Source: Candidatus Margulisiibacteriota bacterium (GTDB taxonomy: Bacteria > Margulisbacteria > Termititenacia > Termititenacales > Termititenacaceae). From it: a DNA stretch of 64,000 bases. Positions 2,825-53,198 of the stretch are shown here, piece after piece. The notes under the pieces are model-generated. The model did no database searches and was not told the DNA's origin. It saw only the letters and a program-made list of their open reading frames with translations. Every line of letters begins with the position of its first letter. Positions within the stretch are counted from its first letter, which is position 1. Location: positions 1,194-65,193 of the forward strand of contig JAISQA010000077.1 in the NCBI GenBank assembly GCA_031274525.1. Direction: 5' to 3'. Position numbers and translations under genes: made by a program.

Positions 2825-3586
2825 TCAGGCTACTCGCATAATATAAATTAACGTGTAATAACCCGGCACGGTGGACACCGCGGTTATTTCGGCATCAGCT
2901 TTCCCCGCGCTGGCATTGGTGATAGTAACACTGCCCGCTAAAGTATGTTTATGCGTATTGGTGGAGATAAAAGCTGTTCCATCCGGAGCTTTTTCATAAT
3001 AGTTATCATTAGCATATTTCGCATTTCTGCCAGCTATTTGATACGAGCCTGGCAATCCATCAGTATTTTGAGATCCCCATGAACCTCCTCTCAAAGAATG
3101 TCCATGCGTATGATCAGCAACACTCAGGGTATTTGCTATAGTATTGGCATGAGTGTGACCGGGCAGGTGATTGGTTGTTAATTTTACGCTATCCGCCCCG
3201 CCAGTACCCCCGGACGTCGCGCCGCCGCGGACAAATTTATTCACCAGATTTGGTGTGCCATTACTACCGTCGCATTTGTACCAGCCCGGCAGCGTGCTGT
3301 TATTTACCCAGCCGCTTCCGCTATACATCAGGATAGTCCCCACGGGCAGTTTGGCCTGTACATCGCCGGTGTTGGCTTTGGCGGCTAAAGCCGTGTATAC
3401 CGCTTTAGATGTGGGATATTCGGTGTCCGAGGTACTGGATATGCTGGTTTTTTTGTTGCTGGCGTCTTCTTTCAAGGCCAGCGCGCTGGTCATATCGCTG
3501 GCATTGGCTTTGAGGTCCAGTGCGGCTTCCACGTCGCTGGCTTTCATCTGTTTTCCCGCGGCTATTCCTGAATATTTTTCGGCCAT
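2825..3586 (-). CDS. phage tail-collar domain protein (MdpB-like)
   Basis: Motifs LPGWYKCDGSNGTPNLVNKFVRGG ... NHLPGHTH are typical of the phage tail collar domain. The N-terminal half is low-complexity and Ala/Ser/Thr-rich. I take the start at the second ATG (MAEKYSG), which sits 8 nt after a GGGAGG Shine-Dalgarno. Confidence 0.6.
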   Translation of the reverse strand: MAEKYSGIAAGKQMKASDVEAALDLKANASDMTSALALKEDASNKKTSISSTSDTEYPTSKAVYTALAAKANTGDVQAKLPVGTILMYSGSGWVNNSTLPGWYKCDGSNGTPNLVNKFVRGGATSGGTGGADSVKLTTNHLPGHTHANTIANTLSVADHTHGHSLRGGSWGSQNTDGLPGSYQIAGRNAKYANDNYYEKAPDGTAFISTNTHKHTLAGSVTITNASAGKADAEITAVSTVPGYYTLIYIMRVA

Positions 3587-15478: not shown

Positions 15479-15707
15479 GCGGTTTAATCAGCGTCCAGCT
15501 TGTCAGAAACCGCCGCAGTTGCTATACTTTTTGCCTGTTTTTGCGGGCTTAGCTAACGGCGCTACGCTTGTGAAATTTGACGCACTTCACTGTCGCTTGC
15601 GACCGAGCCTGTATACCTATCAGGCGAGGAAGTCCTAGTGCGCAAAGGCGCACGGAGGTGAAGTTCAGGGCAGTTGGCAGTCTGTGTAGAATATGTGCTT
15701 CGTTTCT

Positions 15708-15783
15708 GCGGGCTTAGCTCAGTTGGTAGAGCGCGACCTTGCCAAGGTCGAGGTCGTCGGTTCGAGCCCGATAGCCCGCTCCA
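15708..15783 (+). tRNA. tRNA-Gly (anticodon GCC)
   Basis: Cloverleaf with 7-bp acceptor stem GCGGGCT/AGCCCGC, D-loop AGTTGGTAGAGC, anticodon stem-loop CGACC-TTGCCAA-GGTCG, T-arm GTCGG-TTCGAGC-CCGAT and encoded CCA. It is close to E. coli tRNA-Gly(GCC). Confidence 0.9.
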
Positions 15784-15918: not shown

Positions 15919-18900
15919 ATGGACAAAGCCGCCGCTAAACAAAGTATAGCCGAACTGGTCAGAAGATTTGGCGAAAACATAGCTTCCTATAAAAACGGTG
16001 TGTATAACGAAACTCAAACTAGAAGAGAATTTATCGACCCGTTCTTTGAAGCACTGGGCTGGGATGTGGATAATAAACAGGGCCTGGCGGAAGCCTACAA
16101 AGAAGTAATCCACGAATATAAAATAGATAATGTCAAACAGGATTTTCGCCAGTCACCGGATTATTGTTTTACTATCTACGGGCAGGAAAAATTTTTTGTC
16201 GAGGCCAAGAAACCCAGCGTAAATATCAAACAGGATGTCGCTCCAGCCTATCAGGTGAGAAGTTATGCGTGGAGCGCCGGACTGCCTATCTCTATTGTTA
16301 CCGATTTTGAGGAATTTGCGGTATATGACTGTGTGCCAAAACCCAATGCCAGAGACAAAGTGGAAACGGCGAGAATTGAATACCTGACTTTTAGAGAATA
16401 TATCGATAAATTCGATTTTCTCTGGGACACCTTCTCCAAAGAGCGGGTCTTGCAGGGCAGTTTTGATAAATATGTTGCCGCAGATAAAGGCAATCGCGGC
16501 AAAGAAACTGTCGGCAGGGAATTTCTAAAACTTATTGAGGAATGGCGCAGAAGCTTGGCCAATAACATCGCCGCTAATAATGACCTGTCCGATGAGGAGC
16601 TGAATTATGCTGTTCAGCAGACTATCGACAGGATAATTTTTTTGATTATCTGCGAAGATAGAAAAATTGAACCAGCCAATAGGTTAAAAGAATTAGCCGA
16701 AACCCCCAATATCTATAAAAATCTTTTCCGGCTTTTTAGCGAGGCAGACGAAAAATATAATTCCGGTCTGTTCGATTTCCGCAAAGACACTATTTCTGCC
16801 AGAATTGTTATTGATGATAAAAAATTAAAAACTCTGCTGGACGATTTATATAATAGCCCGTATCAGTTTTCGCGGATACCTGTTGAAATACTGGGCAGTG
16901 TGTACGAGCAATTTTTGGGTAAAGTTATCCGCAAAACCAAGACTGCGGCGGTCATTGACGATAAGCCGGAAGTAAAAGTCGCCGGCGGTGTTTTTTACAC
17001 GCCGCAATATGTGGTGAACTACATTGTCAGAAATACTGTTGGCACTGTTATCAGCGGCAAAACTCCGGCGGAAATAAGCAGGATAAAAATAGTTGACCCG
17101 GCCTGCGGCAGCGGCTCTTTTCTGATCGGCGCGTATAAATATCTGCTGGACTATCACCAAAAATATTATCTGGACAATCCGAAAAAAAACAGTCCGTTGA
17201 CCCCGGCCGGAGAACTGACCACAGCGGAAAAGAAAAGGATTTTGCTGAACAATCTCTACGGCGTGGACATCGACGCGCAGGCGGTGGAAGTAACCAAACT
17301 GAGTTTGTTATTGCAGGCTCTGGACGGCGAGACAGAGGCATCCATTAACACCCAATTATCTTTGCTCAAAGAACGGGTTTTGCCCACGCTGGACAATAAC
17401 ATCAAGTGCGGAAATTCGCTGGTCTCCAACGAGGGAACACTTTTTACAGTGGATAATTCGGTGAAGCCATTCGATTGGAAAATAAATTTTCCGGCAGTTT
17501 TCGCGCAGGCCGACCGCCAATGCGGCCGGCACGCCATCGCGGGCAGAGAATGTCCCGCTCGGCAGGGCGGCTTTGATATTGTCATCGGCAATCCGCCGTA
17601 TGTCAAAGAATACACAGCCAGAACCGCTTTTGAGCCGGTGAAAAATTCACATCTGGCCAGATATTATCAGGGCAAAATGGATTTATGGTATTTCTTTGTC
17701 TGCTGGGGATTGGATATTCTGAAAGAAAAAGGCCTCTTGAGTTTTATCGCGCCGAGCAACTGGATAACCAATGCCGGAGCTTCGATATTGCGGAATAAAG
17801 TTCTAACTGAAACAGAAATACAGAGATATTTTGATTTTAATGATTATAAAGTCTTTGAAAATGCTGGTATTCAGACAATGATATTCTGTTTGCAAAAGAA
17901 AACACCGCGCAGACAATATGCTTTTACATACAATAAGGTTACAGATAAAAAAATCGATGAGACTGCGTTAAAAAATGTGCTTATGGGCAGTGAAAAAAAT
18001 CCGGCTATTGAACAAGTGAAAATAAGAGTCCAGCCGGAAATAATGAAAGATAGACTGATTGCTTTTGTTGATGCAAGTATTGATGAAATATTAGAGAAAA
18101 TCATTAAAGCGAGTAATTATTTACTTACTGAAAAAAATGTCGCGCAAGGTATTGTTTGCCCACAAGATTTTGTTATAAAGAAACACTTAGAAGAATTGAA
18201 AAATTCAAGCATAAAAGAAAAAGATGGTGTTTTTATAATATCTTCTGAAGAGCTTCGAAAGCTTAAATTATCAAGCGCAGAAAGAAAAATTATTAAGCCA
18301 TATTATACTACTGAACAATTACACAACTATTATGGTGATGACAAAAACATATCGTGGGTGATTTATTCAGATATGAATGTAAGAAAGAATATTAAAGATT
18401 ATCCTAATATAAAAGCTCATCTTGATAAATATAAAAAGATTATAACTTCTGATTTTGCGCCTTATGGCTTGCACAGAGCAAGAGAACAGGCGTTTTTTGA
18501 GGGTAAAAAAATAATCTCTTTGCGTAAGACTGCCCGACCTTGTTTTACTTATACGGATTTTCCCTGTTATGTTTCGCAAACCTATTTTTCTATCAAACCA
18601 CAGGATATAAACTTGAAATATCTAACAGGCTTGCTTAACTCCTCGCTGGTTAATTTCTGGCTTTATCACAAAGGCAAAAAACAGGGTGAACAGTTGCAGG
18701 TCGACAAAGAGCCTCTGCTACAAATACCTATCGTAAAAACTGATGATAAGCAGGTAGAAAACACCATAATTAAATGCGTGGATGAGATTATCGCATTGAA
18801 AAAACAGCTGCAGGGTGTTTCGCTGGCAAATCAGAAAGAGCAGATAGAAAATAGGATTAAGTTTTTGGAGAATAGGATTGATGAGGTGGTTTTCAAGTTA

Positions 18901-18942
18901 TATGGATTAGTGGATGATGATATAAAAATTGTTAATAAATGA
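15919..18942 (+). CDS. type IIG (MmeI-like) restriction-modification enzyme: N-terminal PD-(D/E)xK endonuclease fused to gamma-class N6-adenine DNA methyltransferase and target-recognition domain
   Basis: Endonuclease motif: SPDYCFTIYGQEKFFVEAKKP (D..E.K). MTase motif I: IVDPACGSGSFL. Motif IV: IGNPPY. Length of 1007 aa and domain order match the MmeI/Eco57I-type single-chain enzymes. Confidence 0.85.
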   Translation: MDKAAAKQSIAELVRRFGENIASYKNGVYNETQTRREFIDPFFEALGWDVDNKQGLAEAYKEVIHEYKIDNVKQDFRQSPDYCFTIYGQEKFFVEAKKPSVNIKQDVAPAYQVRSYAWSAGLPISIVTDFEEFAVYDCVPKPNARDKVETARIEYLTFREYIDKFDFLWDTFSKERVLQGSFDKYVAADKGNRGKETVGREFLKLIEEWRRSLANNIAANNDLSDEELNYAVQQTIDRIIFLIICEDRKIEPANRLKELAETPNIYKNLFRLFSEADEKYNSGLFDFRKDTISARIVIDDKKLKTLLDDLYNSPYQFSRIPVEILGSVYEQFLGKVIRKTKTAAVIDDKPEVKVAGGVFYTPQYVVNYIVRNTVGTVISGKTPAEISRIKIVDPACGSGSFLIGAYKYLLDYHQKYYLDNPKKNSPLTPAGELTTAEKKRILLNNLYGVDIDAQAVEVTKLSLLLQALDGETEASINTQLSLLKERVLPTLDNNIKCGNSLVSNEGTLFTVDNSVKPFDWKINFPAVFAQADRQCGRHAIAGRECPARQGGFDIVIGNPPYVKEYTARTAFEPVKNSHLARYYQGKMDLWYFFVCWGLDILKEKGLLSFIAPSNWITNAGASILRNKVLTETEIQRYFDFNDYKVFENAGIQTMIFCLQKKTPRRQYAFTYNKVTDKKIDETALKNVLMGSEKNPAIEQVKIRVQPEIMKDRLIAFVDASIDEILEKIIKASNYLLTEKNVAQGIVCPQDFVIKKHLEELKNSSIKEKDGVFIISSEELRKLKLSSAERKIIKPYYTTEQLHNYYGDDKNISWVIYSDMNVRKNIKDYPNIKAHLDKYKKIITSDFAPYGLHRAREQAFFEGKKIISLRKTARPCFTYTDFPCYVSQTYFSIKPQDINLKYLTGLLNSSLVNFWLYHKGKKQGEQLQVDKEPLLQIPIVKTDDKQVENTIIKCVDEIIALKKQLQGVSLANQKEQIENRIKFLENRIDEVVFKLYGLVDDDIKIVNK

Positions 18943-19472
18943 AGATGCGAAAAATTAAGAAATTTTTAAATAACCAATGGACAATAGGTATTGGTACTGG
19001 GCTTACAGTATCTTTTATCATCTTGATAATTAACTCGGTAATACAAAGAATAAGCATACTGCAAAGCATATATAGTATTTTGTCATTGATTATTAAGTTT
19101 GTTTGGTGTGTATTAACATTTGGCATTCCAGTATGGCTTTTAATTATAGTGGGTTTAACATTGATACTAATACTAAAAATTATCCCAGAGCCTCAAGAAC
19201 AATGGGAAAAATATACTCTTGGGTATTATAAAAACTGGCTTTTTGAATGGAGTTACGTTGAGGATGCGTTTGGTCAAACGAGGATTAATAACTTGCGACC
19301 TGTTTGTACCAAGTGTCGATGTGATTTATCAACAAATTATCATGAGCTCTATTGTCCTAAATGTTCTAATAAATACTATATACTAGAATCGAATACATTA
19401 AGTGATTTGGAAAAAGTTATTATTGGAAATCTAAAAACCGGAGAATATAAATTAATAGATAAAAAGGAGTGA
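18939..19472 (+). CDS. small membrane protein (3 predicted TM helices) with C-terminal CxxC...CxxC zinc-ribbon
   Basis: Start ATG overlaps the RM stop codon (ATGA). Hydrophobic segments: IGIGTGLTVSFIILIINSVI, ILSLIIKFVWCVLTFGIPVWLLIIVGLTLILILKII. C-terminal CTKCRC...CPKC. Confidence 0.5.
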   Translation: MKMRKIKKFLNNQWTIGIGTGLTVSFIILIINSVIQRISILQSIYSILSLIIKFVWCVLTFGIPVWLLIIVGLTLILILKIIPEPQEQWEKYTLGYYKNWLFEWSYVEDAFGQTRINNLRPVCTKCRCDLSTNYHELYCPKCSNKYYILESNTLSDLEKVIIGNLKTGEYKLIDKKE

Positions 19473-19479
19473 TTTTAGT

Positions 19480-20502
19480 ATGTCTAAGAAAATACCAATA
19501 ATTGGCTACACTCACTTCTTCCAAGACATTAAACAGCGTATTAAATCCGCTCAATATGAAGCCTTAAAATCTGTAAATAAAGAGATGATTCGACTGTACT
19601 GGGACATTGGTAAAAAAATTGTAGATAGTCAGCAAAAACACGGCTGGGGAAAATCGATTGTGGAATCTTTGGCTAAAGATTTACAAGCTGAATTTTCTGG
19701 TATTTCTGGTTTTTCAGCAGATAATTTGTGGCGTATGCGGAAATTCTATCTGAATTATAAAAATAAGCCAAAACTTGCACCATTGGTGCAAGAAATTGCC
19801 TGGGCGCATAACATTGTTATCCTAGAGAAATGCAAAGACGATCTAGCTAGAGAATTTTATATCCGTATGACAAAGAAGTTTGGCTGGACGAAAAATGTAC
19901 TTATTCATCAGATTGAGAATCAGAGTTATGAGAAAACTTTGTTAAATCAAACAAATTTTAGTAAGACCTTACCAGCTAAGATAAAAGGACAGGCACAACT
20001 TGCTGTCCGTGATGAATATACTTTTGACTTTCTGGAATTATCAGATGAACACAGAGAAAAAGATCTTGAACGAGCAATGATAGCCAAAGTAAATCAATTT
20101 CTGATCGAAATGGGTGGTGCCTTTGCCTTCATGGGTAATCAATATCGATTAGAAATAGACGGTGAAGAATATTTTATAGATTTATTATTGTATCATCGCC
20201 GATTGAAATGTTTAGTGGCAATAGAATTAAAAATCGGCAAATTTTTACCGGAATATGTCGGGAAGATGCAGTTTTATCTCTCGGCATTAGATAATGTTAT
20301 TAAAGAAAAAACCGAAAATCCGTCTATCGGAATAATCTTATGCAAAGAGAAAAATCGCACTATTGTTGAATATGCGCTAAAAAATAGCAGAAAACCTATT
20401 GCCGTGGCAAATTATCGAATAACATCAACCCTGCCCAAAGAATTACGCAAAGAACTTCCGGCGCCGGATCAAATCAGACAGATTTTAGAAAAGATGCAAT
20501 AA
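19480..20502 (+). CDS. DUF1016/YhcG-family PD-(D/E)xK nuclease
   Basis: C-terminal YFIDLLLYHRRLKCLVAIELKIGKFLPEYVGKMQFYLSALD matches the YhcG/DUF1016 nuclease core (D..ELK). The N-terminal helical domain is typical of the family. Confidence 0.75.
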   Translation: MSKKIPIIGYTHFFQDIKQRIKSAQYEALKSVNKEMIRLYWDIGKKIVDSQQKHGWGKSIVESLAKDLQAEFSGISGFSADNLWRMRKFYLNYKNKPKLAPLVQEIAWAHNIVILEKCKDDLAREFYIRMTKKFGWTKNVLIHQIENQSYEKTLLNQTNFSKTLPAKIKGQAQLAVRDEYTFDFLELSDEHREKDLERAMIAKVNQFLIEMGGAFAFMGNQYRLEIDGEEYFIDLLLYHRRLKCLVAIELKIGKFLPEYVGKMQFYLSALDNVIKEKTENPSIGIILCKEKNRTIVEYALKNSRKPIAVANYRITSTLPKELRKELPAPDQIRQILEKMQ

Positions 20503-20521
20503 TTTATAAGAGGATAATTCA

Positions 20522-21688
20522 ATGGACAAAGTATTATTATATTATCGGCAATATAAAGATGCACCAGAATATATTTTAGCCGAGTATATTTCCACAAGAA
20601 AAATAAAGATAAGTTTTTATAAAAGAAGTCCGTGGTATTTCGAATATGAAGATGAGCAGGATTATAAAACGATGGATTATTCCTGCACATTTAAGAATAA
20701 AGATGCTACAAAATTTATAAGCCTGTTTACCAAGAATAAAAACCCGCAAGAGTTTTTACAAAGGCTCAAAGCAAAGTTTGCCAAAAGTACTTCACTGGAA
20801 AATATCTTAGAGTTTGCAGATAAACATAAGATAAATTATAAACTTTATGATAATTACTACCCGGAATGGCCAGAAAATATATTTCCATTAGATTATAGAT
20901 ATAAAAAACTCTATGACGAAAAAGGTCAATTTGTTATTCCAGAATTATACGAACCGCCTCAAAATGGTATCAGAAAACTCTTCGATTCTCGTGGAAACTT
21001 ATTTCTAGAAGCCAATTATGTACAAGGCAAGAAAAATGGTTTGTGTACTATATATGAGAATAATAAGATTAAGAAAGAGCGTTATTATGTAGACGATTTA
21101 TTGAGTGGTGTCTATAAAGAATATCATTCAAACGGTAAAGTCAAAATTGAGATGCTTTATACAAATGGTAATCGTGATGGTTTCGCTAAAGAGTACCATC
21201 CAAATGGTCGTATAAAACTGGATTCTTTTTTCAAAGATGATTTACAGGAATGTGTTTCAAACGAATACTATGACAATGGGAAATTAAAACTGGAATCAAC
21301 CTGGGCACGAGATAAAAGCGAAGGCGTAGTAATCACCTACGATATAAATGGAAATATTGAAAGTAAACTGCCTCGCAAGCACGGAAAATTAGACGGTGTA
21401 ATAAGAGATTATTATCCCAATGGTAAATTAAAGTGGGTAGAGGATTATAAAAAAGGACAAAGACACGGTAAGTCTATTAAGTATTATAAATCTGGTAAAA
21501 TAGCGTGTATACAGCATTGGCGTAATGACAAGAAGCGTAATAGCCTCGGCTATTACCAAAATGGAAATGTTTATTATAAATTTTTATTTGATAAAAACGG
21601 CAAAAGACACGGCACATCAAAAACCTATCATAAAAGCGGTAAAATACGAACAATAACAATATACAAAAATGGTAAAGTTGATGATTAG
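20522..21688 (+). CDS. MORN-variant (YwqK-family) repeat protein with a 150-aa unassigned N-terminal domain
   Basis: About 10 tandem repeats of the form Y..NGK.K.E..Y..GK..G....Y (e.g. YYPNGKLKWVEDYKKGQRHGKSIKYYKSGK). Confidence 0.65.
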   Translation: MDKVLLYYRQYKDAPEYILAEYISTRKIKISFYKRSPWYFEYEDEQDYKTMDYSCTFKNKDATKFISLFTKNKNPQEFLQRLKAKFAKSTSLENILEFADKHKINYKLYDNYYPEWPENIFPLDYRYKKLYDEKGQFVIPELYEPPQNGIRKLFDSRGNLFLEANYVQGKKNGLCTIYENNKIKKERYYVDDLLSGVYKEYHSNGKVKIEMLYTNGNRDGFAKEYHPNGRIKLDSFFKDDLQECVSNEYYDNGKLKLESTWARDKSEGVVITYDINGNIESKLPRKHGKLDGVIRDYYPNGKLKWVEDYKKGQRHGKSIKYYKSGKIACIQHWRNDKKRNSLGYYQNGNVYYKFLFDKNGKRHGTSKTYHKSGKIRTITIYKNGKVDD

Positions 21689-21711
21689 ATTTCAAATAGG
21701 AAATATAAATA

Positions 21712-22626
21712 ATGGCATTATTTAAGATAAATAATTTAAGCGTCGAGAAACTATCTGCCAGCCGGCCTGATCTAGAGCGTAGTTTACAGAAGCTCTTTGA
21801 AAACAATTTAGAAGAAATCCTAAATATTATTTTTCTAGCGCACGAATATACAACGAGTTTTGGCGGTAGGATTGATACTCTTGGCATAGATAAGAACGGA
21901 GCCCCTTGTATAATTGAATATAAAAAAACTAAAGATGATAATGTTATTAATCAAGGGTTGTCTTACTTGCGCTGGTTGCTTGACCATAAAGCTGATTTCG
22001 AAAAACTATGTAAAACTCATAAAGTAAATACTGATATTGATTGGGATTCACCGCGAGTTATTTGTATTGCTGAAAGTTATAATAAATTTGATATTGATAC
22101 AGCAGATATTTTACCGATTAAGATTGAATTGTTATGTTATAAACTTTATGAGGATAATATCTTATATATTGAGGCAGAAAATCATCAGAAAGTAAAAATT
22201 TCTACATCTGGCATAACAAAAAAAGCTAAACAATATAAAGAACAGGCCGAACATTTACAAAAGATTTATTCTATTGATGATCACCTCATTGGGATTAATA
22301 AGCAAACTAAAGAGTTATTTTATAACTTACGTGAAAAAATTATCTCGCTTGATAAAAACATTGTTGAGGAGGCAAAAGCTAAATATATTGCCTATAAAAC
22401 AGCAACAAATTTCACGGATATTGTGATTCAACGATCCGGATTGAAAATATTTATAAATATCAAAAGCGGACAACTTATTGATCCACAAGGATTGGCGCGT
22501 GATTTAACAAAACCAAAACATATCGGACATTGGGGGAATGGTGATTATGAAACAACTCTTGAAAAAGAAAATGAACTTGAAACAGTTTTTGCTTTAATCA
22601 AACAAGGATATGATTTAAATAAATAG
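21712..22626 (+). CDS. NucS/DUF91-like PD-(D/E)xK nuclease-fold protein with a C-terminal domain shared with the Bro-N protein at 33690..34319 (DUF5655-like)
   Basis: GRIDTLGIDKNGAPCIIEYKK..VINQGLSYLRWL fits the RecB-like core of NucS/DUF91. The C-terminal KAKYIAYKTATNF...HIGHWGNGDYETTLE aligns with the C-terminus of the 33690..34319 protein. Confidence 0.5.
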   Translation: MALFKINNLSVEKLSASRPDLERSLQKLFENNLEEILNIIFLAHEYTTSFGGRIDTLGIDKNGAPCIIEYKKTKDDNVINQGLSYLRWLLDHKADFEKLCKTHKVNTDIDWDSPRVICIAESYNKFDIDTADILPIKIELLCYKLYEDNILYIEAENHQKVKISTSGITKKAKQYKEQAEHLQKIYSIDDHLIGINKQTKELFYNLREKIISLDKNIVEEAKAKYIAYKTATNFTDIVIQRSGLKIFINIKSGQLIDPQGLARDLTKPKHIGHWGNGDYETTLEKENELETVFALIKQGYDLNK

Positions 22627-33689: not shown

Positions 33690-34319
33690 TTAGCCGCCTA
33701 TGTTTGCAAAAGCGATTCTTATGTACTCTTTAGACGCCTCTGCTTCTTCCGCATTAGTAATCTCCAGCTCAAAATCACCAGTTCCATAATGACCGATATT
33801 AGACACATCACGACCATTATGCGGAATTGGCCCATCAACTCCGGGCTTAACTTTTAAATACATTATTAATTTATTTTTCTTTATTTCCACACATACAAAA
33901 TTTTGACTCAATTTATAGGCAATATAAAACTTCTTAGGTACTTCTTCTATTTCTTTCGTACGCTCGTAGCCTACTCTGGCCAGCCAGCGCTTAAACGGCT
34001 CGGCCTTAGAACTGGGAATAGATTGAATAATACGAAAAACACCCTCGGTATTAGCACAATTTAGTTTTTGCGCTCCTCCGGCAGTATCCAATAAAAGGGG
34101 GGTGGCAATTTGCCCCCACCCTTTGGCCAGCTCAGGATCACGCCGCCGCATATCTTTCAAATATCCAGCCGGCTGTAAAGAATCTGTCAAGGCCGCGACA
34201 ACATCCACTATACAAAACCACCATTCAGCATTGTGCAGGATACGGCGGATTTTCTTGTCCCTAAAAACAACCAGCTGACTGGCGCTGTCCATATGCGGAT
34301 TGTCTGTCTGCTTGCTCAT
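33690..34319 (-). CDS. Bro-N (phage antirepressor N-terminal) domain protein with C-terminal DUF5655-like domain
   Basis: N-terminal FRDKKIRRILHNAEWWFCIVDVVAAL resembles the Bro-N motif. The C-terminal YIAYKLSQNF...NIGHYGTGDFELE is homologous to the C-terminus of the 21712..22626 protein. The gene is lower in GC and abuts rimO with no gap. Confidence 0.5.
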   Translation of the reverse strand: MSKQTDNPHMDSASQLVVFRDKKIRRILHNAEWWFCIVDVVAALTDSLQPAGYLKDMRRRDPELAKGWGQIATPLLLDTAGGAQKLNCANTEGVFRIIQSIPSSKAEPFKRWLARVGYERTKEIEEVPKKFYIAYKLSQNFVCVEIKKNKLIMYLKVKPGVDGPIPHNGRDVSNIGHYGTGDFELEITNAEEAEASKEYIRIAFANIGG

Positions 34320-40906: not shown

Positions 40907-42139
40907 TCATATCTCTATATTCAGCAGCAGAAAATCTTTCAAATGCATACAGCGCACACCCTTAGAGCTGACGCCCACCGCATCTTCGTCCATAGTCACC
41001 ACATATTTGGGAAATTGATCGGGAACCTGTTCGAGATTGCCAAATTCCCGGCGCCGGGTATCCTCATTGTCAATGCGGTAAACCACCTGGACATAAATTC
41101 TTCGCCCCTGTTTTGCTCCCACAAAATCTATTTCCTTATTTTCCAGCTTGCCGACAGTCACCGTCAAGCCGCGCTGGAGCAGAAAACTATAGACCGCATT
41201 CTCCATGAGTTTGGCCAAATCCCCGGCGGGATTATGCACCAGCGCATTGCGCAGGCCAATATCTTCAAAATAATATTTTTCGCCTATTTCAAAAATTTTG
41301 AGGCCGCCGATATTGGAACGCGGCACTTTGTGAATGAGAAAAGCTTTTTCCAGCGCCGTCAGATAGTTTATTACGGTCTGCACCGGCATATTGATCCGCT
41401 GGTTTTTGAGGTATCTGCTGATATTGCTGGCGGAAAAAAGACTGCCGATATTATCCGCCAGATAAGCCGTCAGATTTTCCAGGAACCGGCTGTTGCGGAT
41501 ATTTTCCCGGGCAATAACATCACGCAGCAAAATCGATTCATAAATATTACGCAGATAATCAAAAGCCAGAGTTTCCAGCTGCGCCGTCCGGGGTAGAGAG
41601 GCCAGATACGGCAGACCGCCGATCTTTAAATACTTATGCAAAGCTTCGTTAGTATTTTTCAAGCGGTGAAAGAACAAAAACTCGGCATAACTCAGAGGAT
41701 GCACCTGTATCTGCACATATCGGCCGGCCAGATAGGTGGCCAGTTCCCCGGAAAGCAGATGCGCATTGCTGCCCGTACAGTATATATCGCACTGCCCCGC
41801 GGCAAAAAGCGATTTTAGAGCATGCTCAAATTGCGCGATTTCCTGTATCTCATCAACAAATAAATAATTGCGGCGTTTTTTTTGCAGCCGTGCCGCGACC
41901 AACTGCTGCAGGTCAGCGGCGGTTTTGACAGAACGAAATTCTGCCAGCTCGGTATTGATGTAGATAATATTAGCTCTGGGCTTGAATTTTTTTATTTCGG
42001 CCATCAGCTGATACAGGATATAGCTTTTACCGGAGCGGCGCTGGCCGGTAAATACTTTAATAATAGGCGAATCCATAAAAGGACGCACGCGCTCCAGATA
42101 TTCCAGACGCGGCAAGTAATTCAACCCGGCTTCAATCAT
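40907..42139 (-). CDS. AAA-superfamily ATPase with DUF4143 (AAA_14 family, ATP-binding protein)
   Basis: Walker A GQRRSGKS. The C-terminal region is typical of the DUF4143 family. I take the start at ATG 42139 (MIEAGLNYL) rather than the TTG at 42175. Confidence 0.7.
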   Translation of the reverse strand: MIEAGLNYLPRLEYLERVRPFMDSPIIKVFTGQRRSGKSYILYQLMAEIKKFKPRANIIYINTELAEFRSVKTAADLQQLVAARLQKKRRNYLFVDEIQEIAQFEHALKSLFAAGQCDIYCTGSNAHLLSGELATYLAGRYVQIQVHPLSYAEFLFFHRLKNTNEALHKYLKIGGLPYLASLPRTAQLETLAFDYLRNIYESILLRDVIARENIRNSRFLENLTAYLADNIGSLFSASNISRYLKNQRINMPVQTVINYLTALEKAFLIHKVPRSNIGGLKIFEIGEKYYFEDIGLRNALVHNPAGDLAKLMENAVYSFLLQRGLTVTVGKLENKEIDFVGAKQGRRIYVQVVYRIDNEDTRRREFGNLEQVPDQFPKYVVTMDEDAVGVSSKGVRCMHLKDFLLLNIEI

Positions 42140-42193
42140 AATTGAAACTTTAGCATATATTACCACCAGTTTCAATCACAATTGAAACTTTAG
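42131..42193 (-). promoter_or_regulatory. two 23-bp direct repeats, each containing the palindrome TTCAAT-N4-ATTGAA, spanning the start codon and promoter of the DUF4143 ATPase gene (candidate tandem operators)
   Basis: TTCAATCATAATTGAAACTTTAG at 42131..42153 and TTCAATCACAATTGAAACTTTAG at 42171..42193 differ by 1 mismatch. The centre-to-centre spacing is 40 bp. Confidence 0.45.
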
Positions 42194-47152: not shown

Positions 47153-47275
47153 TGCAATGTGCTTGCAATACATAAGGCGCGAGTATAGCACACCCGGCAA
47201 AAAATCTAACCAGTGCTGGCAGCGCTAGGCGTTATTGATCGTACCGGCATAGAGAATATTACGGCAAACCTTGCT

Positions 47276-47434
47276 GCCTCGCTGACGCGAGGCAGGACAG
47301 TACAGTTAACCTAAAATATCTTCAAACGAAGAAACTTTCTGTTAACACATACTGTCCGTTACGGCAAAACCATATCTCCAAGCACAACGCGAAGCGTTGT
47401 GCTTGGAGAGCCGGTACAGTTCACAGGAAATATC
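47276..47434. repeat. structured repeat module: two GC hairpins each followed by a GTACAGTT..AAATATC unit, plus an imperfect inverted repeat (GGACAGTACAGTTAAC / GTTAACACATACTGTCC)
   Basis: Hairpin 47276..47293 (GCCTCGC-TGAC-GCGAGGC) and hairpin 47376..47408 (15-bp perfect stem). Units at 47294..47320 and 47409..47434. Inverted-repeat arms at 47296..47310 and 47341..47357. Confidence 0.3.
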
Positions 47435-47464
47435 ATTTAACGCAATAACTATCCAGCAATCAAG

Positions 47465-47792
47465 TTAACAATACGGCAGCCCGGTAAGCCGGGTTCTGTT
47501 TTGCAGACGATCATTTATCTAGGCCGGACGTTGCCGTCCGGCTCAAGCAAGCAACCCGGAACTGCTAACGAGGCGGGCGCTCTCGTCCCCTATTTGCTCT
47601 TGCTCCGCGCAGAGTTTACCTCTTTTCACTACAGCACTTTTTACAAAGCCTGTACATCGTCTCTGTGGCACTGGTCCTCGCCTTTTGGCTTACGCCCACG
47701 GCGGACGGCCGTTAGCCGCTGCGCTGCCCGCAGGAGCCCGGACTTTCCTCGGCGGCAATAAAATGCCAACGCGATCGTCCCGGTCTGCCGCA
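47465..47792 (-). ncRNA. rnpB: RNase P RNA (bacterial type A, compact)
   Basis: The minus strand contains the universally conserved P4 strands GAGGAAAGTCCGGGCTCC (revcomp of about 47737..47754) and ACAGAACCCGGCTTACC near the 3' end (revcomp of about 47474..47492). It also has GGCCTAGATAAATGA, which matches E. coli GGCCUAGAUGAAUGA. P1 is inferred as CGGCAG/CTGCCG. The 5' and 3' ends are approximate. Confidence 0.85.
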
Positions 47793-47958: not shown

Positions 47959-48336
47959 TTATCTGACTATCCTGTACAGATCCGCCGTCTGAATAGTCCG
48001 GTCGTAAAAATAAATGCCGGCATATTCCAGCAAACAAACCGCCAGCGCGCCCGCCGCCGCCAGTATTTCCGGCGCACCGGCCCTCAACAGCACGCTCAGT
48101 CCAGCTATTAAAGTCAGCAGGGGCAGGATTATCAGCAAACCCAGCGCGCGCCAGAAATATACAGCATTGAGCTCCACCTGCACGATCCGGCCTCTGGCGT
48201 ATTTGCGGCGGGTTTTGATCACCAGTTTGTCCGCTCCGGGCCGGCAGACTTTGCAGCCGCCGCAGTCTCGCGGCGGGCAGGTTTCCAGTTCCAAGCCGGT
48301 TTTGGTTTGCCGGATAACTCTAGCCTGAATTAACAC
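47959..48336 (-). CDS. RseC/MucC-family small membrane protein
   Basis: N-terminal CGGCKVC motif followed by two TM helices. Length 125 aa. It overlaps the upstream phosphomutase gene by 7 nt. Confidence 0.45.
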   Translation of the reverse strand: MLIQARVIRQTKTGLELETCPPRDCGGCKVCRPGADKLVIKTRRKYARGRIVQVELNAVYFWRALGLLIILPLLTLIAGLSVLLRAGAPEILAAAGALAVCLLEYAGIYFYDRTIQTADLYRIVR

Positions 48337-49721
48337 TGCCGCGCCAATTGTCCAGCCGCAGCCAGCAGACGCGCCACTTCGGCATCTGACGCCGCCTCGC
48401 AGTAGATCCGCAGCAGCGGCTCGGTGCCGGAAGCCCGGAACAAAATCCAGCTGTCATCGGTAAAATGTATTTTAAGGCCGTCCAGTTCTTCTTTATTCTT
48501 TACGGATTTGCCCAGAAATTCCGCCGGTAAATCTTCTGCCAGAATTTGCCCTATCTTTTCTTTCTGCGCGTTGTCCAGCCGCAGATCCAGCCGGTCATAG
48601 CGGTGCGCGCCAAATCTCGCTTCCAGACCGGCGTAGATTTGCTCCAGAGTTTTCCGCTCCGCCGCCGCCACCTCGCAAAGATACAGCGAATTTAAAATGC
48701 CGTCGCGGTCGGGAATATTGCCGGAGGCCGCATAACCGCCGGACTCCTCGCCGCCCAGCAGCACGCCGCCGCGCAGGATCTCCCCGGCGATATACTTAAA
48801 GCCTATTTTGGTCACGCTCACTTCCCGGCCGAGACCGGCCGCCAGTTTGTCCAGCAGCTTCGTGCCGTTGAAAGCATGCACCAGCTTGCCCGGCTTTTGC
48901 AGATTTTCGGCAAAGTGGTGGAAGAGCACCGCAAAAACTTTCTGCGAATTAATGAACTGGCCGTCGCTGCCGCAGGCGCCGTTGCGGTCGGCGTCGCCGT
49001 CCAGCACCAGACCTATGGCAAAATCCTGCCCCGCGCTCTGGATAGCCGCCATAAAATCCGGCACATTGCAGGCCAGCGGTTCCGGATTGAAACCGCCGAA
49101 TTTAGTATCGCGCTGAGCGTTCATCTCCACACTTGCGATGCCGTGCCGCGCCAGAATAGTGGAGAGATAACCGGAGCCGGAGCCGTAAAGCGGATCAATA
49201 AAAATCCGCAGGCCGCTTTTCTGGATCCCGGCAAAGTCAATGCGCTGCTCGACATATTGAAAATACTTCTCGCGCGGATCGTACAGCTCAACTTTACCGC
49301 CTTTTTTAACCGGATTTTTATCGAGGAACCGCATTATGCCGTCTGTCGTTTCCGGGAAAGAGGAACAGCCCTGCGGCTCTTTGACCTTGAAGCCGTTGTA
49401 CTGCGGCGGATTGTGCGAGGCGGTGATCATCACGCCGGAAGCCAGCCCCCGCTCGCGCACCACAAAAGAGACGACCTGGGTCGGACAGGCAGCGGCGGAC
49501 AAAAAAACCGGATAGCCGCTGGCCGCGATGATCTCCGCGGCTGTCCGGGCGAACACTTCGGAATTGGCGCGGCAGTCATAGCCGACAAAAAAACCTTTAT
49601 CCGCCGTGCCCAGCCCGCGGTAATAATCCACATAAGCCTGCGCCACGCGCTCCACATTGGCCGGAGAAAAATCCCCGTCCATGGTGTCCCGCCAGCCGTC
49701 CGTGCCGAATTTTACAGGCAT
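48330..49721 (-). CDS. alpha-D-phosphohexomutase (phosphoglucomutase/phosphomannomutase/GlmM-like)
   Basis: N-terminal FGTDGWRD, active-site Ser loop TASHNPPQYNGFK, metal-binding DGDADR and sugar-binding GEESGG. Confidence 0.8.
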   Translation of the reverse strand: MPVKFGTDGWRDTMDGDFSPANVERVAQAYVDYYRGLGTADKGFFVGYDCRANSEVFARTAAEIIAASGYPVFLSAAACPTQVVSFVVRERGLASGVMITASHNPPQYNGFKVKEPQGCSSFPETTDGIMRFLDKNPVKKGGKVELYDPREKYFQYVEQRIDFAGIQKSGLRIFIDPLYGSGSGYLSTILARHGIASVEMNAQRDTKFGGFNPEPLACNVPDFMAAIQSAGQDFAIGLVLDGDADRNGACGSDGQFINSQKVFAVLFHHFAENLQKPGKLVHAFNGTKLLDKLAAGLGREVSVTKIGFKYIAGEILRGGVLLGGEESGGYAASGNIPDRDGILNSLYLCEVAAAERKTLEQIYAGLEARFGAHRYDRLDLRLDNAQKEKIGQILAEDLPAEFLGKSVKNKEELDGLKIHFTDDSWILFRASGTEPLLRIYCEAASDAEVARLLAAAGQLARQC

Positions 49722-49739: not shown

Positions 49740-50939
49740 CTAAAGCTGGCGCAGATAGTCAAGGGCATACTGCAATTGCACATCTTTTTCCTCGCTGTAT
49801 TTGTAATCCGGATCGTTCAGCGCTTCCTCTATGGAGGCGGTCGGAATCTCCACGACAAAATTCGGCGAAATGCCGACTTTGTTGATGTCCGTGCCGTCCG
49901 GGGTCAGATACTTGGCGACAGTCACGAGTATCGCCGAGCCGTCGGACAGCGGCCGGATATTCTGCACCGAAGCCTTGCCAAAAGACTGCGTGCCGACCAG
50001 CTGGCCGCGGCCGTTATTTGCCACCGCGCCGGCCAGTATCTCCGACGCCGACGCCGAACCGCCGTTGATCAGAATGACCAGCGGTTTGGTATACCATTGA
50101 TAATCCACAGCCACGGACTGAAAGGTTTCTTTGTTGCCGTAACGATCGACCGTATGCACGATCTCGCCGTTCTGGATAAATATAGACGAAATAGCGATCG
50201 CCTCATCCAGCAGGCCGCCGCCGTTGTTGCGCAGATCCAGGATCAGCCGCTGCAGGCCTTTTTTCTCCAGACCCTGAATAGCCTCGACCAATTCAGCATA
50301 AGTCAGCTTGCTTTCAAAAGTAGACAGCATAATATAACCGATCTTGTTTTTTTCATCGAGCATTTTCTGGCGGTACACGGATTTGATCTTGATATTGTCG
50401 CGCACCAGCGTGTAGTCTTTGGCTTTTTCATTGAGATTGCGCAGCACCAGCAGGGTGACTTTGGTGCCCTTGGGGCCGCGGATCAGCGACACCGCCTGCT
50501 CCAGCGACATATCCTCGGTGGACTTGCCGTTGATTTCCAGTATCCGGTCACCGGTTTTAAAGCCCGCCCGATCCGCCGGTGTGTCCTCGATCGGCGCGAT
50601 GACGGTCAGCACACTGTCTTTCATGCCGATCTGGATGCCGATGCCGGCAAAGTTGCCGTTGAGATGCGTCTGCATATCCGCATAGCCTTCCGGATCGACA
50701 AAACGGGTATAAGGATCATCCAGCGCGCGCAGCATACCGCGGATCGAGCCGTAGATCAGCTTGTCATCCTTGACCTCCGTCTCGACGAACTGCGTGCGCA
50801 CAATACTCAGCGCCTGATAAAGCAGTCCCCAGGTGGCGTCCACGCGTGCGGCCGCCAAAAACTGCACGCTCAAACCCAGTACAAAGGCCAGCACGCAGCA
50901 GATAACCGCCGCCGATATTTTAATTTTAGGTTTCAACAT
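49740..50939 (-). CDS. ctpA: carboxyl-terminal processing protease (S41, CtpA) with PDZ domain
   Basis: Signal/anchor sequence, PDZ (GDRILEINGKSTE) and the S41 catalytic region (GGSASASEI ... K). Confidence 0.85.
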   Translation of the reverse strand: MLKPKIKISAAVICCVLAFVLGLSVQFLAAARVDATWGLLYQALSIVRTQFVETEVKDDKLIYGSIRGMLRALDDPYTRFVDPEGYADMQTHLNGNFAGIGIQIGMKDSVLTVIAPIEDTPADRAGFKTGDRILEINGKSTEDMSLEQAVSLIRGPKGTKVTLLVLRNLNEKAKDYTLVRDNIKIKSVYRQKMLDEKNKIGYIMLSTFESKLTYAELVEAIQGLEKKGLQRLILDLRNNGGGLLDEAIAISSIFIQNGEIVHTVDRYGNKETFQSVAVDYQWYTKPLVILINGGSASASEILAGAVANNGRGQLVGTQSFGKASVQNIRPLSDGSAILVTVAKYLTPDGTDINKVGISPNFVVEIPTASIEEALNDPDYKYSEEKDVQLQYALDYLRQL

Positions 50940-50965: not shown

Positions 50966-52078
50966 CTAGGGCAGATACTGCTGGGGGTTGACAGTCTCGC
51001 CATTTAGCCGCACTTCAAAATGCAGATGCGGGCCGGTGGCATAGCCGGTGGCTCCTACATTGCCGATAGTCTGGCCTTTGTTGACTTTTTCGCCTTTTTT
51101 GACCTCTTGTTTGGACATATGGGCGTACAGCGTGGAATAACCGCGGCCGTGATCCAGAATCACACAACGGCCGTAGCCGCCCCACCAGTCAGAATAAGTC
51201 ACCACTCCGGAATCCGCGGCCTTGATCGGCGTGCCGTGCGCCACGCCGATATCCAGCCCGGTGTGCATCTTGGCTACTTTGAAGATCGGATGCACTCGCT
51301 TGCCGTACAGCGAGGTGATGACCCCGCGCACCGGCCAGATATATTTACCGGAGCCGCGCGCTTCCGCCCGGGGATTTTCCAGGATCATTTTCTTGAGCAT
51401 CGCTTCGACTTCCTGAGAATTTTTCAGCAGGCTGTCCGCTTCTCTTTCGTATTTGAGACGCTCGGCGCGCAGCGAGGCATGCAGCTGCTCCTGACGCCTG
51501 GTCCTCTGCTCATAGAGCTGTTTTTGCTGTTCAATGCTTTTTTTGGTCGATTCGATAATATTTTTCTGATATTCCAGATTTTCTTTTTTACGCGCGATGT
51601 CCTGCTTGATCGAACGCACCTGTTCCAGATTTTGCAGATCGCGCCCCAGCAGCCGACGGTAATAATAGGTATTCTCTACCAGACTGGAAAAAGAACGGTT
51701 GGTCAGCAGCAAAGTCAGCCAGCCCAGATCCTGAGTCTTGTACATTTCCCGGATACGCAGCCGGCTCAGGCTCAAACGCCGCCGGTACTCCGCGTCATTG
51801 CGGTTTAATTCTTCGCTGGTCTGCTGCAGCACCTGCGTATGCTGGGTTAATTTTTGCTGATTGTATTTCAGCTCATTCTGGACTTTGTTCAGACTGCGGC
51901 TGAGCAGGGTCAGGTCGCGCAGCGAAGCGTTTTCTTTGACCTTAGTCTGCTGGAGCAGGCGCTGATTGCGCTGAAGCTCTGACTGCAAACGCTGCAGTTC
52001 TTTTTGTTTGTCGGCGATGCTGTCCGCCGGCGCCAGCGCCAGAAGCAGACTGAACAGCAATAAAACCCGGAACAGCAA
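50966..52078 (-). CDS. M23-family peptidase with N-terminal coiled coil (EnvC/murein hydrolase activator-like), secreted
   Basis: C-terminal M23 motifs (HTGLDIG..G.PI.A...G.V; H.H). The long coiled coil is rich in Q/L/R. I take the start at TTG 52078 (MLFRVLLLFSLLLALAPA signal peptide), which has a GGGGGGG Shine-Dalgarno 6 nt upstream. The ORF-track start at 52165 runs through the att-like repeat. Confidence 0.7.
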   Translation of the reverse strand: MLFRVLLLFSLLLALAPADSIADKQKELQRLQSELQRNQRLLQQTKVKENASLRDLTLLSRSLNKVQNELKYNQQKLTQHTQVLQQTSEELNRNDAEYRRRLSLSRLRIREMYKTQDLGWLTLLLTNRSFSSLVENTYYYRRLLGRDLQNLEQVRSIKQDIARKKENLEYQKNIIESTKKSIEQQKQLYEQRTRRQEQLHASLRAERLKYEREADSLLKNSQEVEAMLKKMILENPRAEARGSGKYIWPVRGVITSLYGKRVHPIFKVAKMHTGLDIGVAHGTPIKAADSGVVTYSDWWGGYGRCVILDHGRGYSTLYAHMSKQEVKKGEKVNKGQTIGNVGATGYATGPHLHFEVRLNGETVNPQQYLP

Positions 52079-52128
52079 ACTAATCCCCCCCTGTATGCTT
52101 CCGCAGGCCGGACCCGCCGGCTGTCCAT

Positions 52129-52157
52129 AGCACACTAAGTGCCGAAGGCCGGACTCG
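52129..52157. repeat. 29-bp direct repeat copy 1, identical to the 3' 18 nt of tRNA-Leu plus 11 nt of flank (att-like)
   Basis: AGCACACTAAGTGCCGAAGGCCGGACTCG matches 52320..52348 perfectly. Confidence 0.85.
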
Positions 52158-52319
52158 CCGCTCATCTCGCCTGCCGGACGGCAGGCTTCGCTCGCGGGCG
52201 GGTCTCGCTGACTTTGCCTGTAGCAAAGCCAGCTCCGACTGTTCGAGTCCAGCCGCAGACAGCCACAGGCTGCCTGCTTCAGGTACTATTCTTCAAAACC
52301 ACAGGTTAAATCTTAACAC

Positions 52320-52348
52320 AAGCACACTAAGTGCCGAAGGCCGGACTC
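52320..52348. repeat. 29-bp direct repeat copy 2 (overlaps the tRNA-Leu 3' end)
   Basis: Same 29-mer. Positions 52331..52348 are the tRNA T-arm/acceptor 3' strand. Confidence 0.85.
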
Positions 52349-52418
52349 GAACCGGCACGGGCGTTTGACTTCCCTCAGGATTTTAAGTCCTGTGTGTCTA
52401 CCAATTCCACCACTTCGG
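52331..52418 (-). tRNA. tRNA-Leu (anticodon UAA), class II with long variable arm, CCA not encoded
   Basis: Minus-strand sequence GCCGAAG-TG-GTG-GAATTGGTAGA-CAC-A-CAGGA-CTTAAAA-TCCTG-(19-nt variable arm)-GCCGG-TTCGAGT-CCGGC-CTTCGGC-A. Length 88 nt. Confidence 0.85.
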
Positions 52419-52434
52419 CGCGAAACTTCTGGCC

Positions 52435-52920
52435 CTACTCGTCCCGGCGTTTTTTCTGGCCTTTGCGTCTGGAGCCCTGACGGTACTGGAGATTGCGCCG
52501 CACATCCAGCTGCACTTCCTCGCTGGTTTTCATAAAATTGTGCATCAGCTCGTCAAAAGAACCCGGTTCGAAATTTTTGTCCCGCCGTTTGCCGCCGCCG
52601 TCCTCCGCGCGGGCAGTATACTGCGGCGCCGGGGCGGGATTGGCCTGTTTGATCGAGAGGTCGTATTTGCCCTTGTTGTTTTTACCCAGGACACGCACGG
52701 TGATCTCTTGATTCAGTTTGACAAAATTATCAATATTCGTCACATAGGTATTGGCGATCTCGGAAATGTGCACCAGCCCTTCCCGCCCGTCCGGCAGCCG
52801 GACAAAAGCGCCAAAACTGGTAATGCCGGTCACCGTGCCTTTTAATAATTCTCCGGGGGAATACTCTCTTGCTTCCGCGTTTTCCGCGGTATTCTGCTCG
52901 GCCATTGTGTTAAAACTCAA
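52435..52920 (-). CDS. S1 domain RNA-binding protein (general stress protein 13/YugI-like)
   Basis: S1 motif GTVTGITSFGAFVRLPDGREGLVHISEI...VRVLG with a basic C-terminal tail. Confidence 0.7.
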   Translation of the reverse strand: MSFNTMAEQNTAENAEAREYSPGELLKGTVTGITSFGAFVRLPDGREGLVHISEIANTYVTNIDNFVKLNQEITVRVLGKNNKGKYDLSIKQANPAPAPQYTARAEDGGGKRRDKNFEPGSFDELMHNFMKTSEEVQLDVRRNLQYRQGSRRKGQKKRRDE

Positions 52921-53198
52921 TCCTCCTCAATAATCTTGTACGCCGTCTCGCCGGGCTTGACCAGCCCCAGACGGTCGCGCGCGTTTAATTCAATAAATTC
53001 GTCGCTCTGCGCTTCGGTCAGGCTGAGCTTCAGCTCCTCATTGCGCCTGGTCATCGCGGCATATCGGGCTTCCAGCGCCGCATAACGCCGCAGCACCGCG
53101 CGGTTACGCGCAAAACCATTCAGCAGAGCATAACCAATATACAGGATGAATAACCCCAGAGCAAAAACAAAAAGCCTTCTTTTGACATATATATTCAT
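52917..53198 (-). CDS. septum formation initiator FtsB/DivIC-family protein
   Basis: N-terminal TM helix and coiled coil, with the C-terminal motif DE.IE..AR..LGLVKPGE. Confidence 0.7.
   Translation of the reverse strand: MNIYVKRRLFVFALGLFILYIGYALLNGFARNRAVLRRYAALEARYAAMTRRNEELKLSLTEAQSDEFIELNARDRLGLVKPGETAYKIIEED

Follow-up and report, generated by a model that had tools for sequence, protein, structure and literature searches.

A duplicated tRNA-Leu(UAA) 3′ end bounds a small non-coding unit with attachment-site-like anatomy in a Margulisbacteria genome

Elements that occupy tRNA ends

The att sites that P4-family and other tyrosine integrases use at tRNA-Leu genes consist of a 3′-end repeat that begins in the T-loop and leaves the tRNA intact. 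P4 itself employs a core of this type in leuX. The locus described here, which lies in a 64-kb window (the whole stretch of DNA that was analysed), has the same anatomy: the 3′ part of tRNA-Leu(UAA) is present as a direct repeat, the tRNA is intact, and the block of identity runs from the T-loop past the tRNA 3′ end. It departs from P4-type sites in carrying neither integrase nor cargo, in having 163 bp between the sites, and in including 11 host-specific flank bases in the repeat; moreover, neither an attP nor an occupied site was found for it among eight relatives or in viral, metagenome, phage and plasmid scans.

CIMEs and other att-flanked island remnants likewise show two att-type repeats and no integrase of their own, and CIMEs can stand in tandem with other units at a shared tRNA or gene end, a layout also seen for two units in one relative of the window (L008, below). 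Known CIMEs, from the streptococcal ICE literature, are kilobases long and clearly derive from a co-resident ICE, whereas the window unit measures 192 bp and has no detectable parent element. REP/REPIN-like repeats resemble the window in their GC-rich intergenic hairpins, and a hairpin composite found in the relatives is also dispersed and structure-conserving; the tRNA-Leu spacer of the window, however, is single-copy in all data examined. REPs are not known to be flanked by 29-bp duplications. Casposons produce target duplications of 14–35 nt, some at tRNA-Leu, and leave solo remnants behind (PMC4779613). They resemble the clade of the window in targeting the 3′ end of tRNA-Leu, in inserting in tandem and in leaving small remnants (PMC4779613); the clade differs in the lack of terminal inverted repeats and Cas1, in a bacterial host of another lineage, and in a repeat length that varies between relatives. 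The kind of scar is known, and this one is unusual only for its small size and its recurrence in related genomes.

The duplicated tRNA-Leu end and the spacer

A repeat finder identified a 29-mer, AGCACACTAAGTGCCGAAGGCCGGACTCG, in two 100% identical copies whose starts are 192 bp apart (Table 1). Identity is lost sharply at either edge, no further copy occurs in the 64-kb window with up to 3 mismatches permitted, and 100 dinucleotide shuffles gave a chance expectation of 0 for such a pair. Read on the tRNA strand, the repeat is CGAGTCCGGCCTTCGGCA followed by CTTAGTGTGCT, that is, 18 nt of tRNA, with C56 of the T-loop at one end and the discriminator A73 at the other (52332–52349), and 11 nt of 3′ flank (52321–52331 in the tRNA-side copy), the latter specific to the source genome. 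This division agrees with the Rfam tRNA boundary, while ARAGORN gives 52331–52419, one base more. The initial annotation had described the last 18 nt of tRNA-Leu(UAA) and 11 nt of flank as perfectly repeated in direct orientation over 29 bp, and the repeat finder, the shuffles and the tRNA boundary bear this out; it had also set the copies 162 bp apart and ended the feature at 52348, which we correct to a gap of 163 bp (52158–52320) and an end at 52349.

Two lesser tRNA-derived segments accompany the perfect pair. The degenerate third copy, F2, matches the distal copy over a stretch that takes in bases outside the 29-mer. The second segment repeats the 3′ half of the T-arm in inverted form, GTTCGAGTCCAGCC; it is complementary to 52339–52352 (13/14), and thereby to both repeat copies, and is placed between the first and second hairpins of the spacer.

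Table 1. Positions of the tRNA-Leu locus, its neighbours and the hairpin composites (window coordinates unless a related locus is named)
Feature	Position	Strand	Basis or remark
Phosphoglucomutase	48330–49721	−	Pfam
CtpA-type S41 protease	49740–50939	−	Pfam
M23/EnvC-like peptidase gene	50966–52078	−	Pfam PF01551; 100% match to 370-aa P0001
Degenerate third copy (F2)	52101–52119	−	17/19 identical to 52142–52160, family D1
Distal direct-repeat copy (F1)	52129–52157	−	Repeat finder and mismatch search; attR under the integrase reading
Non-coding spacer, 163 bp	52158–52320	−	Sequence, folding, ORF and similarity searches
Inverted 3′ half of T-arm	52241–52254	+	Inverted repeat I5, 13/14
Extended −10-like box	52310–52320	−	Read by eye; resembles a box upstream of M23 in relatives
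tRNA-side direct-repeat copy	52321–52349	−	Repeat finder and mismatch search
tRNA-Leu(UAA)	52332–52419	−	Rfam RF00005, 63.4 bits; ARAGORN; intact, no encoded CCA
S1-domain gene	52435–52920	−	Pfam
DivIC-like gene	52917–53198	−	Pfam
tRNA-Gly(GCC)	15708–15783		
Hairpin composite, window	15553–15669	−	
Hairpin composite, L006	7206–7269	−	
Hairpin composite, L084	2925–2988	+	
Hairpin composites, L008	1467–1538, 1553–1625, 1769–1841	+	

Whether the distal copy is intergenic depends on where the M23 gene starts. The predicted peptidase matches the 370-aa protein P0001, from a Candidatus Margulisbacteria MAG, at 100% identity and 100% coverage, and its next-closest relatives come from other Margulisbacteria and Candidatus Termititenax. 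This full-length match sets the start at a TTG codon (52076–52078), so that the distal 29-mer falls in the intergenic DNA between tRNA-Leu and M23, where the initial annotation had put it. A run of G resembling a ribosome-binding site precedes the gene at 52085–52091. A 399-aa ORF that overlaps the repeat was considered as the M23 gene and is ruled out by the P0001 match; annotation calls for caution here, as the longest M23 ORF traverses the repeat and would be miscalled.

Along the minus strand the order is DivIC-like gene, S1-domain gene, tRNA-Leu, repeat region, M23, CtpA-type S41 protease and phosphoglucomutase. Pfam scans of the 53 ORFs across the 64-kb window detected no integrase, transposase or Cas protein, in line with the earlier statement that no integrase is nearby, nor did the window ORFs contain cas12k, tnsB, tnsC, tniQ, tnpB or iscB domains.

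Other features of the window are noted here for completeness. An RNase P RNA of class A (209 bits, 47469–47791, minus strand; region 47201–47791) is followed by two diverged tandem copies of a hairpin module with a period of ~114 bp. A 1903-aa ORF at 8907–14618 has no Pfam match at E≤0.001. A Bro-N/DUF5655 protein (33690–34319) and an AAA_14/DUF4143 ATPase (40907–42175), both of types often linked to mobile or defence DNA, stand among housekeeping genes.

The spacer is AT-rich toward the tRNA and GC-rich toward the distal copy. Followed in the direction of the tRNA, the locus comprises the tRNA, the 29-mer, an AT-rich stretch that starts with TGTGTTAAGAT directly after the tRNA-side copy, three strong hairpins on the GC-rich side (~52255–52277, 52208–52232 and 52169–52186), the second 29-mer, 9 nt, F2, the G-run and TTG. 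The 253 nt from tRNA to M23 fold at −119.2 kcal/mol (z = −4.1 against shuffles). The spacer holds no credible ORF; searched against Rfam at E≤1, the region returned the tRNA alone; and the window, the relatives' loci, phages and plasmids contain nothing similar to it. We also considered the spacer as a degenerate second tRNA, but neither ARAGORN nor Rfam calls one on either strand. No terminator-like site was seen on the minus strand between tRNA and M23. By eye, TGTGTTAAGAT reads as an extended −10-like box similar to one, TGTTATAAT, that relatives have upstream of M23, and a consensus promoter scan found nothing at 52310–52320. Today the insert is no more than a structured untranslated stretch, which probably belongs to the M23 leader or the tRNA trailer.

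The edges of the spacer bear on an origin by transposition, in which the 29 bp would be a target-site duplication made through staggered cuts 29 bp apart by a casposon-like or hairpin-dependent enzyme, or the distal copy would be a guide-like spacer of an RNA-guided transposon that homes to the tRNA. Fill-in duplication would give two perfect copies that extend into non-tRNA flank, as seen here, and the published casposon traits (14–35-nt duplications, tRNA-Leu targets, solo remnants; PMC4779613) fit. In addition, a hairpin precedes the distal copy, and GGTT precedes the matching stretch in the tRNA. Yet the spacer ends lack terminal inverted repeats, which together with the 29-bp length of the duplication also sets the unit apart from MITEs and IS-type elements. 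Neither the window nor the relatives' loci hold genes for Cas1, a polymerase, Cas12k, Tns or TnpB, and the repeat length varies by lineage (17, 20 or 29), unlike the product of a fixed molecular ruler. GGTT is universal in T-loops and hence uninformative. With no associated gene or domain and no Rfam match, the guide-RNA reading, whether as a type V-K CRISPR-associated transposon or as a TnpB or IscB system, was rejected, and we strongly doubt transposition as a whole.

The tRNA-Leu/M23 gap in relatives

We collected ten loci with M23 homologues by exact-protein look-up, and in 8/10 the tRNA-Leu(UAA) gene adjoins M23. Two loci with other synteny, in which tRNA-Leu does not adjoin M23 (L007 and L009), were left out; L082 was uninformative, as its contig begins within M23. 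A search of GTDB species genomes via the M23 protein returned two distant loci only, which are irrelevant here, and exact-protein look-ups with the CtpA and M23 proteins of the window yielded no record and no independent assembly of the species. The tRNA-Leu(UAA) sequence of the window is identical in L003, L008 and L083, and the gap that follows the tRNA is hypervariable across the eight relatives. In L005 it is an empty 41 nt, with tRNA followed by M23, and in L085 (T. persephonae) it is empty as well, at ~50–80 nt depending on the start codon chosen; these empty sites belong to different species, not strains. L083 has a gap of ~150 nt with hairpins and no tRNA fragment.

The gap of L008, at ~480 nt, contains AGTCCGGCCTTCGGCAC three times, as exact 17-nt copies with spacings of 161 and 157 nt. 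The flank after the last of them is homologous to the flank directly after the tRNA in L083, indicating that an insertion of ~318 bp in L008 consists of two tandem units, A and B. Each unit ends in a shared stretch of 51 nt, 98% identical between the two, which comprises a hairpin and the tRNA fragment. L008 and L083 thus form a clean occupied/empty pair. L008 also has an inverted 11-mer equivalent of the T-arm piece (1452–1462, I4). In L006, a 20-nt copy of the T-arm lies 51 nt downstream of the original and is followed by a 63-nt hairpin element, CGGCAC and the native flank. The fragment bears the T-loop variant of its own lineage, TTCAAGT, which means that it was copied from the L006 tRNA or has been kept matched to it. 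Judged from these sequences, extra copies of the tRNA-Leu 3′ end have arisen independently at one site in at least three lineages, and their left boundaries all lie within the T-arm, at about position 50 (L006), C56 (window) and A58 (L008).

Two further relatives show rearrangements of other kinds. In L084, the tRNA-Leu gene and a downstream hairpin composite of the L006 type (2921–3101) are inverted with respect to the flanking S1 and M23 genes, with one endpoint in the 5′ acceptor strand (GCCG) and the other in a pseudo 3′-end fragment (CGGC). In L003, a palindromic hairpin stands between tRNA and M23 together with an inserted ORF of 409 aa, whose only matches, to TPR, are weak. The L003 region 2370–2545 contains perfect palindromes with 20–22-bp arms on either side of tRNA-Leu that include the first few and last few bases of the gene, and four tandem 31-nt repeats lie upstream. 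ARAGORN also calls a tRNA-Ile(GAT) within the CtpA coding region of L003 (5832–5917) and L004 (2129–2214); the call, which Rfam does not confirm in L003, is likely a false positive.

The L003 ORF marks the sole gene-bearing insert among the relatives. The called genes of the relatives' loci include no integrase, transposase or Cas protein, and no site occupied by an integrase-bearing element occurs among the eight. A comparison intended to reveal an occupied version of the site hence returned empty sites (L005, L085) and extra 3′-end copies (L006, L008) but no gene island. As for the further check of whether the spacer resembles island ends, no island-like sequence turned up in the eight relatives or in viral or metagenome scans. 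Pairwise scores of the window spacer against the relatives' units were no higher than those of shuffles. Similarity of the flank after the tRNA-side copy to L006 is marginal (p about 0.03), and the likeness of the distal flank to L085 is not significant.

These loci also weigh on the possibility of an assembly artefact, in which the shared 29-mer served to join two strain variants or a collapsed island. The source is a MAG contig from a species for which we found no independent assembly, and 29 is a k-mer size used in some assemblers. Final assembly k-mers, however, are normally longer than 29, and the distal junction, where non-tRNA sequence meets the tRNA 3′ end and its flank, needs real DNA for any path through a graph. 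Comparable structures are present in assemblies made independently at JGI (L006) and NCBI (L008), and for this reason we consider it very unlikely that the repeat is an artefact.

A second tRNA in the window is associated with a duplication of a different type. The sequence GTTT(T/C)TGCGGGCTTAGCT occurs twice at tRNA-Gly(GCC), at 15537–15554 and 15702–15719, 165 nt apart; it comprises 6 nt of upstream flank and the first 12 nt of the tRNA, and the copies differ by 1 mismatch in 18 nt. Between them lies a hairpin composite that begins with the 17-mer AACGGCGCTACGCTTGT, which also follows the T-arm fragment of L006. After the composite the tRNA-Gly pseudo-copy resumes with CAGTTGGCAG, like a D-loop, so that the composite sits inside a duplicated tRNA fragment, as it does in L006. 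This 5′-end duplication is beyond what integrases of tRNA 3′ ends explain. A good promoter, TTGTCA-17-TATACT, lies upstream of the tRNA-Gly fragment copy and not of the intact tRNA. Directly after tRNA-Gly, a low-GC block (about 33%, 15919–22626) resembles a defence island and encodes an Eco57I/MmeI-like type IIG restriction-modification enzyme, a YhcG/DUF1016 nuclease, a MORN-repeat protein and a DUF5655 protein; an integrase is missing from it, and nowhere else in the window does the tRNA-Gly 3′ end recur over ≥12 nt.

The composite consists of two hairpins over ~65–115 nt, with an outer stem CTTMAC/GTKAAG, a GAGRG linker and the second hairpin. An alignment of the copies from the window, L008, L006 and L084 gave a conserved two-hairpin structure with compensatory changes in 10/20 pairs, and the copies in L008 unit A and L006 resemble each other closely (z = 20), although they face opposite ways with respect to the tRNA. 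A covariance model, R1, matches the composite next to tRNA-Leu or tRNA-Gly only, where it abuts tRNA-end fragments in either orientation; the composite has no Rfam family. Hairpins with strict AA/GAA loops occur in the L008 gap only, and a search with R1 gave no additional copies. The composite is a dispersed small element tied to tRNA-end fragments. Searched as composite E1 (M1-linker-M3 modules), the tRNA-Leu spacer shows no such element, R1 hits in the window being confined to 15553–15669. With no sequence link to the spacer, the tRNA-Gly element serves as context and as a caution, not as part of the tRNA-Leu feature.

The 17-mer AACGGCGCTACGCTTGT has 70 matches in metagenomes, about the chance level for a 17-mer by a rough estimate, and none is a Margulisbacteria element. 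In L017, L022, L027, L035, L036, L037 and L054 it forms the middle of a REP-like hairpin, GCCGG-17mer-TCCGGCCTAC. Its presence in unrelated soil and freshwater contigs is probably a coincidence amplified by a multicopy family.

These hairpins raise the question of whether selection for an RNA structure, such as a leader, trailer, terminator or processing element of a tRNA-Leu/M23 transcript, accounts for the locus, with the identity of the repeat kept by pairing with the inverted T-arm piece. Folding exceeds that of shuffles in L008 (z = −10) as it does in the window, the relatives' hairpin modules keep their pairing by the compensatory changes noted above, all L008 modules lie on the transcribed strand, and the minus strand is without a terminator-like site between tRNA and M23. 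The structure is missing, however, from the short gaps of the nearest relatives (L005 and L085), and so is not a conserved regulator; moreover, no Rfam family matches, and no sequence common to the window spacer and the relatives' modules is detectable. As an explanation we find it quite unlikely; it describes a present function and is compatible with any origin.

Alternatively, a local, recombinase-independent duplication, through slippage or template switching among hairpins, would have copied the 29 bp and the inverted T-arm piece into structured intergenic DNA that was already in place, with no mobile element involved. Many short direct and inverted duplications in the relatives contain terminal tRNA bases, as in the L003 palindromes and the inverted 11-mer of L008; the L006 copy has a 51-nt period; and the inverted tRNA segment of L084 has its endpoints in acceptor-stem sequences. 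Local duplication is further suggested by unit B of L008, which shares modules with the native flank (77% over 81 nt), and by the 11 bases of own flank inside the repeat. The tRNA-Gly duplication, which reaches into the D-loop, is of a kind that 3′-end integrases do not explain, and the tandem duplication after the RNase P RNA gene, with its 114-bp period, is an unrelated instance of copied hairpin modules. Against this, a simple tandem duplication predicts a second 163-bp spacer, and none is present, nor does the window contain a source for the spacer elsewhere. The left edge falls in the T-loop (window, L008) or at the start of the T-arm (L006), a place where integrases cross over and for which slippage has no reason. 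Finally, L008 differs from L083 by discrete units that each carry the same terminal fragment. On balance we regard local duplication as unlikely, if far from negligible.

Attachment-site anatomy and the origin of the insert

Viral sequences provide a parallel for the duplicated block. The 19-nt tRNA part of the repeat occurs in 39 IMG/VR contigs, with no tRNA called at the match in 13/39, and in at least six contigs (L088, L089, L096, L103, L109 and L122) tRNA likeness ends within ~2–22 nt upstream of the 19-mer. One 27.7-kb viral contig has both a full tRNA-Leu (L093) and a fragment (L122). The L109 fragment begins at CGAGTCC, the same T-loop base at which the window repeat begins, and a P4-like integrase gene with Arm-DNA-bind_3, Phage_int_M and Phage_integrase domains lies 165 bp downstream of it. 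The 3′ fragments in these contigs are of the type seen at prophage ends. In addition, the 3′-terminal 27 nt of tRNA-Leu(UAA) equal those of an enterobacterial-type tRNA-Leu(CAA) at prophage borders in IMG/VR contigs. By these matches, the duplicated block is, outside the window, a genuine attachment core of P4-like integrases, which speaks for a likeness and not for membership. The full 29-mer has 0 matches in viral contigs and 0 in JGI metagenome contigs, both spacer/repeat junction probes and the L008 junction have 0 matches in viral contigs, and no free element was found in viral contigs, JGI metagenomes, phages or plasmids.

We favor, with moderate confidence, the reading that the 192-bp unit (the 163-bp spacer and one 29-bp repeat) is a cargo-less insert between att-type recombination products at the 3′ end of tRNA-Leu(UAA). 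A recombinase acting at the T-loop/acceptor end would have joined DNA that had the same 29 bp, leaving an intact tRNA on one side (attL) and a displaced 3′-end copy on the other (attR). The insert may represent either (a) what was left at both ends of a larger island when its interior was deleted or (b) a miniature element of ~160–190 bp that is complete in itself and is moved in trans by an integrase encoded elsewhere; between island remnant and miniature element the split is roughly even. The degenerate third copy F2 may mark an earlier round at the same site, and as such it fits repeated events. For the 192-bp unit, we infer the enzyme, the direction of the event and any continuing mobility. 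Excision of the unit would give a circle junction GATGAGCGG-[29-mer]-TGTGTTAAG and restore an empty site of tRNA-[29-mer]-ATGGACAGCC.

An origin by integrase is the best reading, partly supported rather than demonstrated. The initial annotation had taken the tRNA 3′-end duplication as the attL and attR of a tyrosine integrase: the anatomy and the L109 parallel speak for this, as do the empty sites of L005, L085 and, relative to L008, L083, whereas an integrase, an attP and an occupied site were absent from the ORF-less spacer, the window ORFs, the eight relatives and the viral, metagenome, phage and plasmid scans. Similarly, of its alternatives of a scar or a minimal cargo-less element, the insert without genes holds, and the same searches revealed no parent element. 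A casposon remnant, with terminal inverted repeats beside the duplication and either Cas1 and polymerase genes or a solo inverted repeat, is not what the locus contains.

Several observations count against simple integration. Since the repeat includes 11 host-specific flank bases, the incoming DNA must already have had the flank of this genome. What follows the tRNA-side copy is like the M23 promoter of L006, L005, L003 and L084, which, if real, places the native flank at the "wrong" copy; with a test p of about 0.03, this likeness opposes simple integration weakly. The window spacer has neither similarity to the relatives' units nor a covariance-model match, so that its membership in one element family with them is at most putative.

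The sizes of the direct-repeat-bounded units bear on the choice between remnant and miniature element. At 157, 161 and 192 bp they are alike, and together with the 98% shared 51-nt end of the two L008 units this favors a defined small unit over random decay, making a defined miniature unit at least as likely as the leftover of a large island. Going further, the 192-bp unit, the 157–161-bp units of L008 and perhaps the composite of L006, L084 and tRNA-Gly might form an undescribed class of miniature non-coding tRNA-end elements in Termititenax-related Margulisbacteria, which would insert specifically where tRNA genes end, carry or create a 17–29-bp copy of the tRNA end and be moved in trans, possibly as ssDNA. 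Inverted and direct T-arm copies lie ~75–85 nt apart and would fold together, mimicking the target duplex, as happens at the single-stranded attachment sites that some filamentous phages and integron cassettes use. We offer this broader grouping tentatively and consider it doubtful.

If the 192-bp unit is a scar only, it would still show tRNA-Leu(UAA) to be a hotspot of repeated integration in an uncultured phylum about which little is known, and would point to where the mobile elements of that phylum may be sought. If the small units are mobile, they would be the att-site counterpart of MITEs, integrative elements reduced nearly to the attachment site, and would offer a handle on an unknown recombinase in Margulisbacteria.
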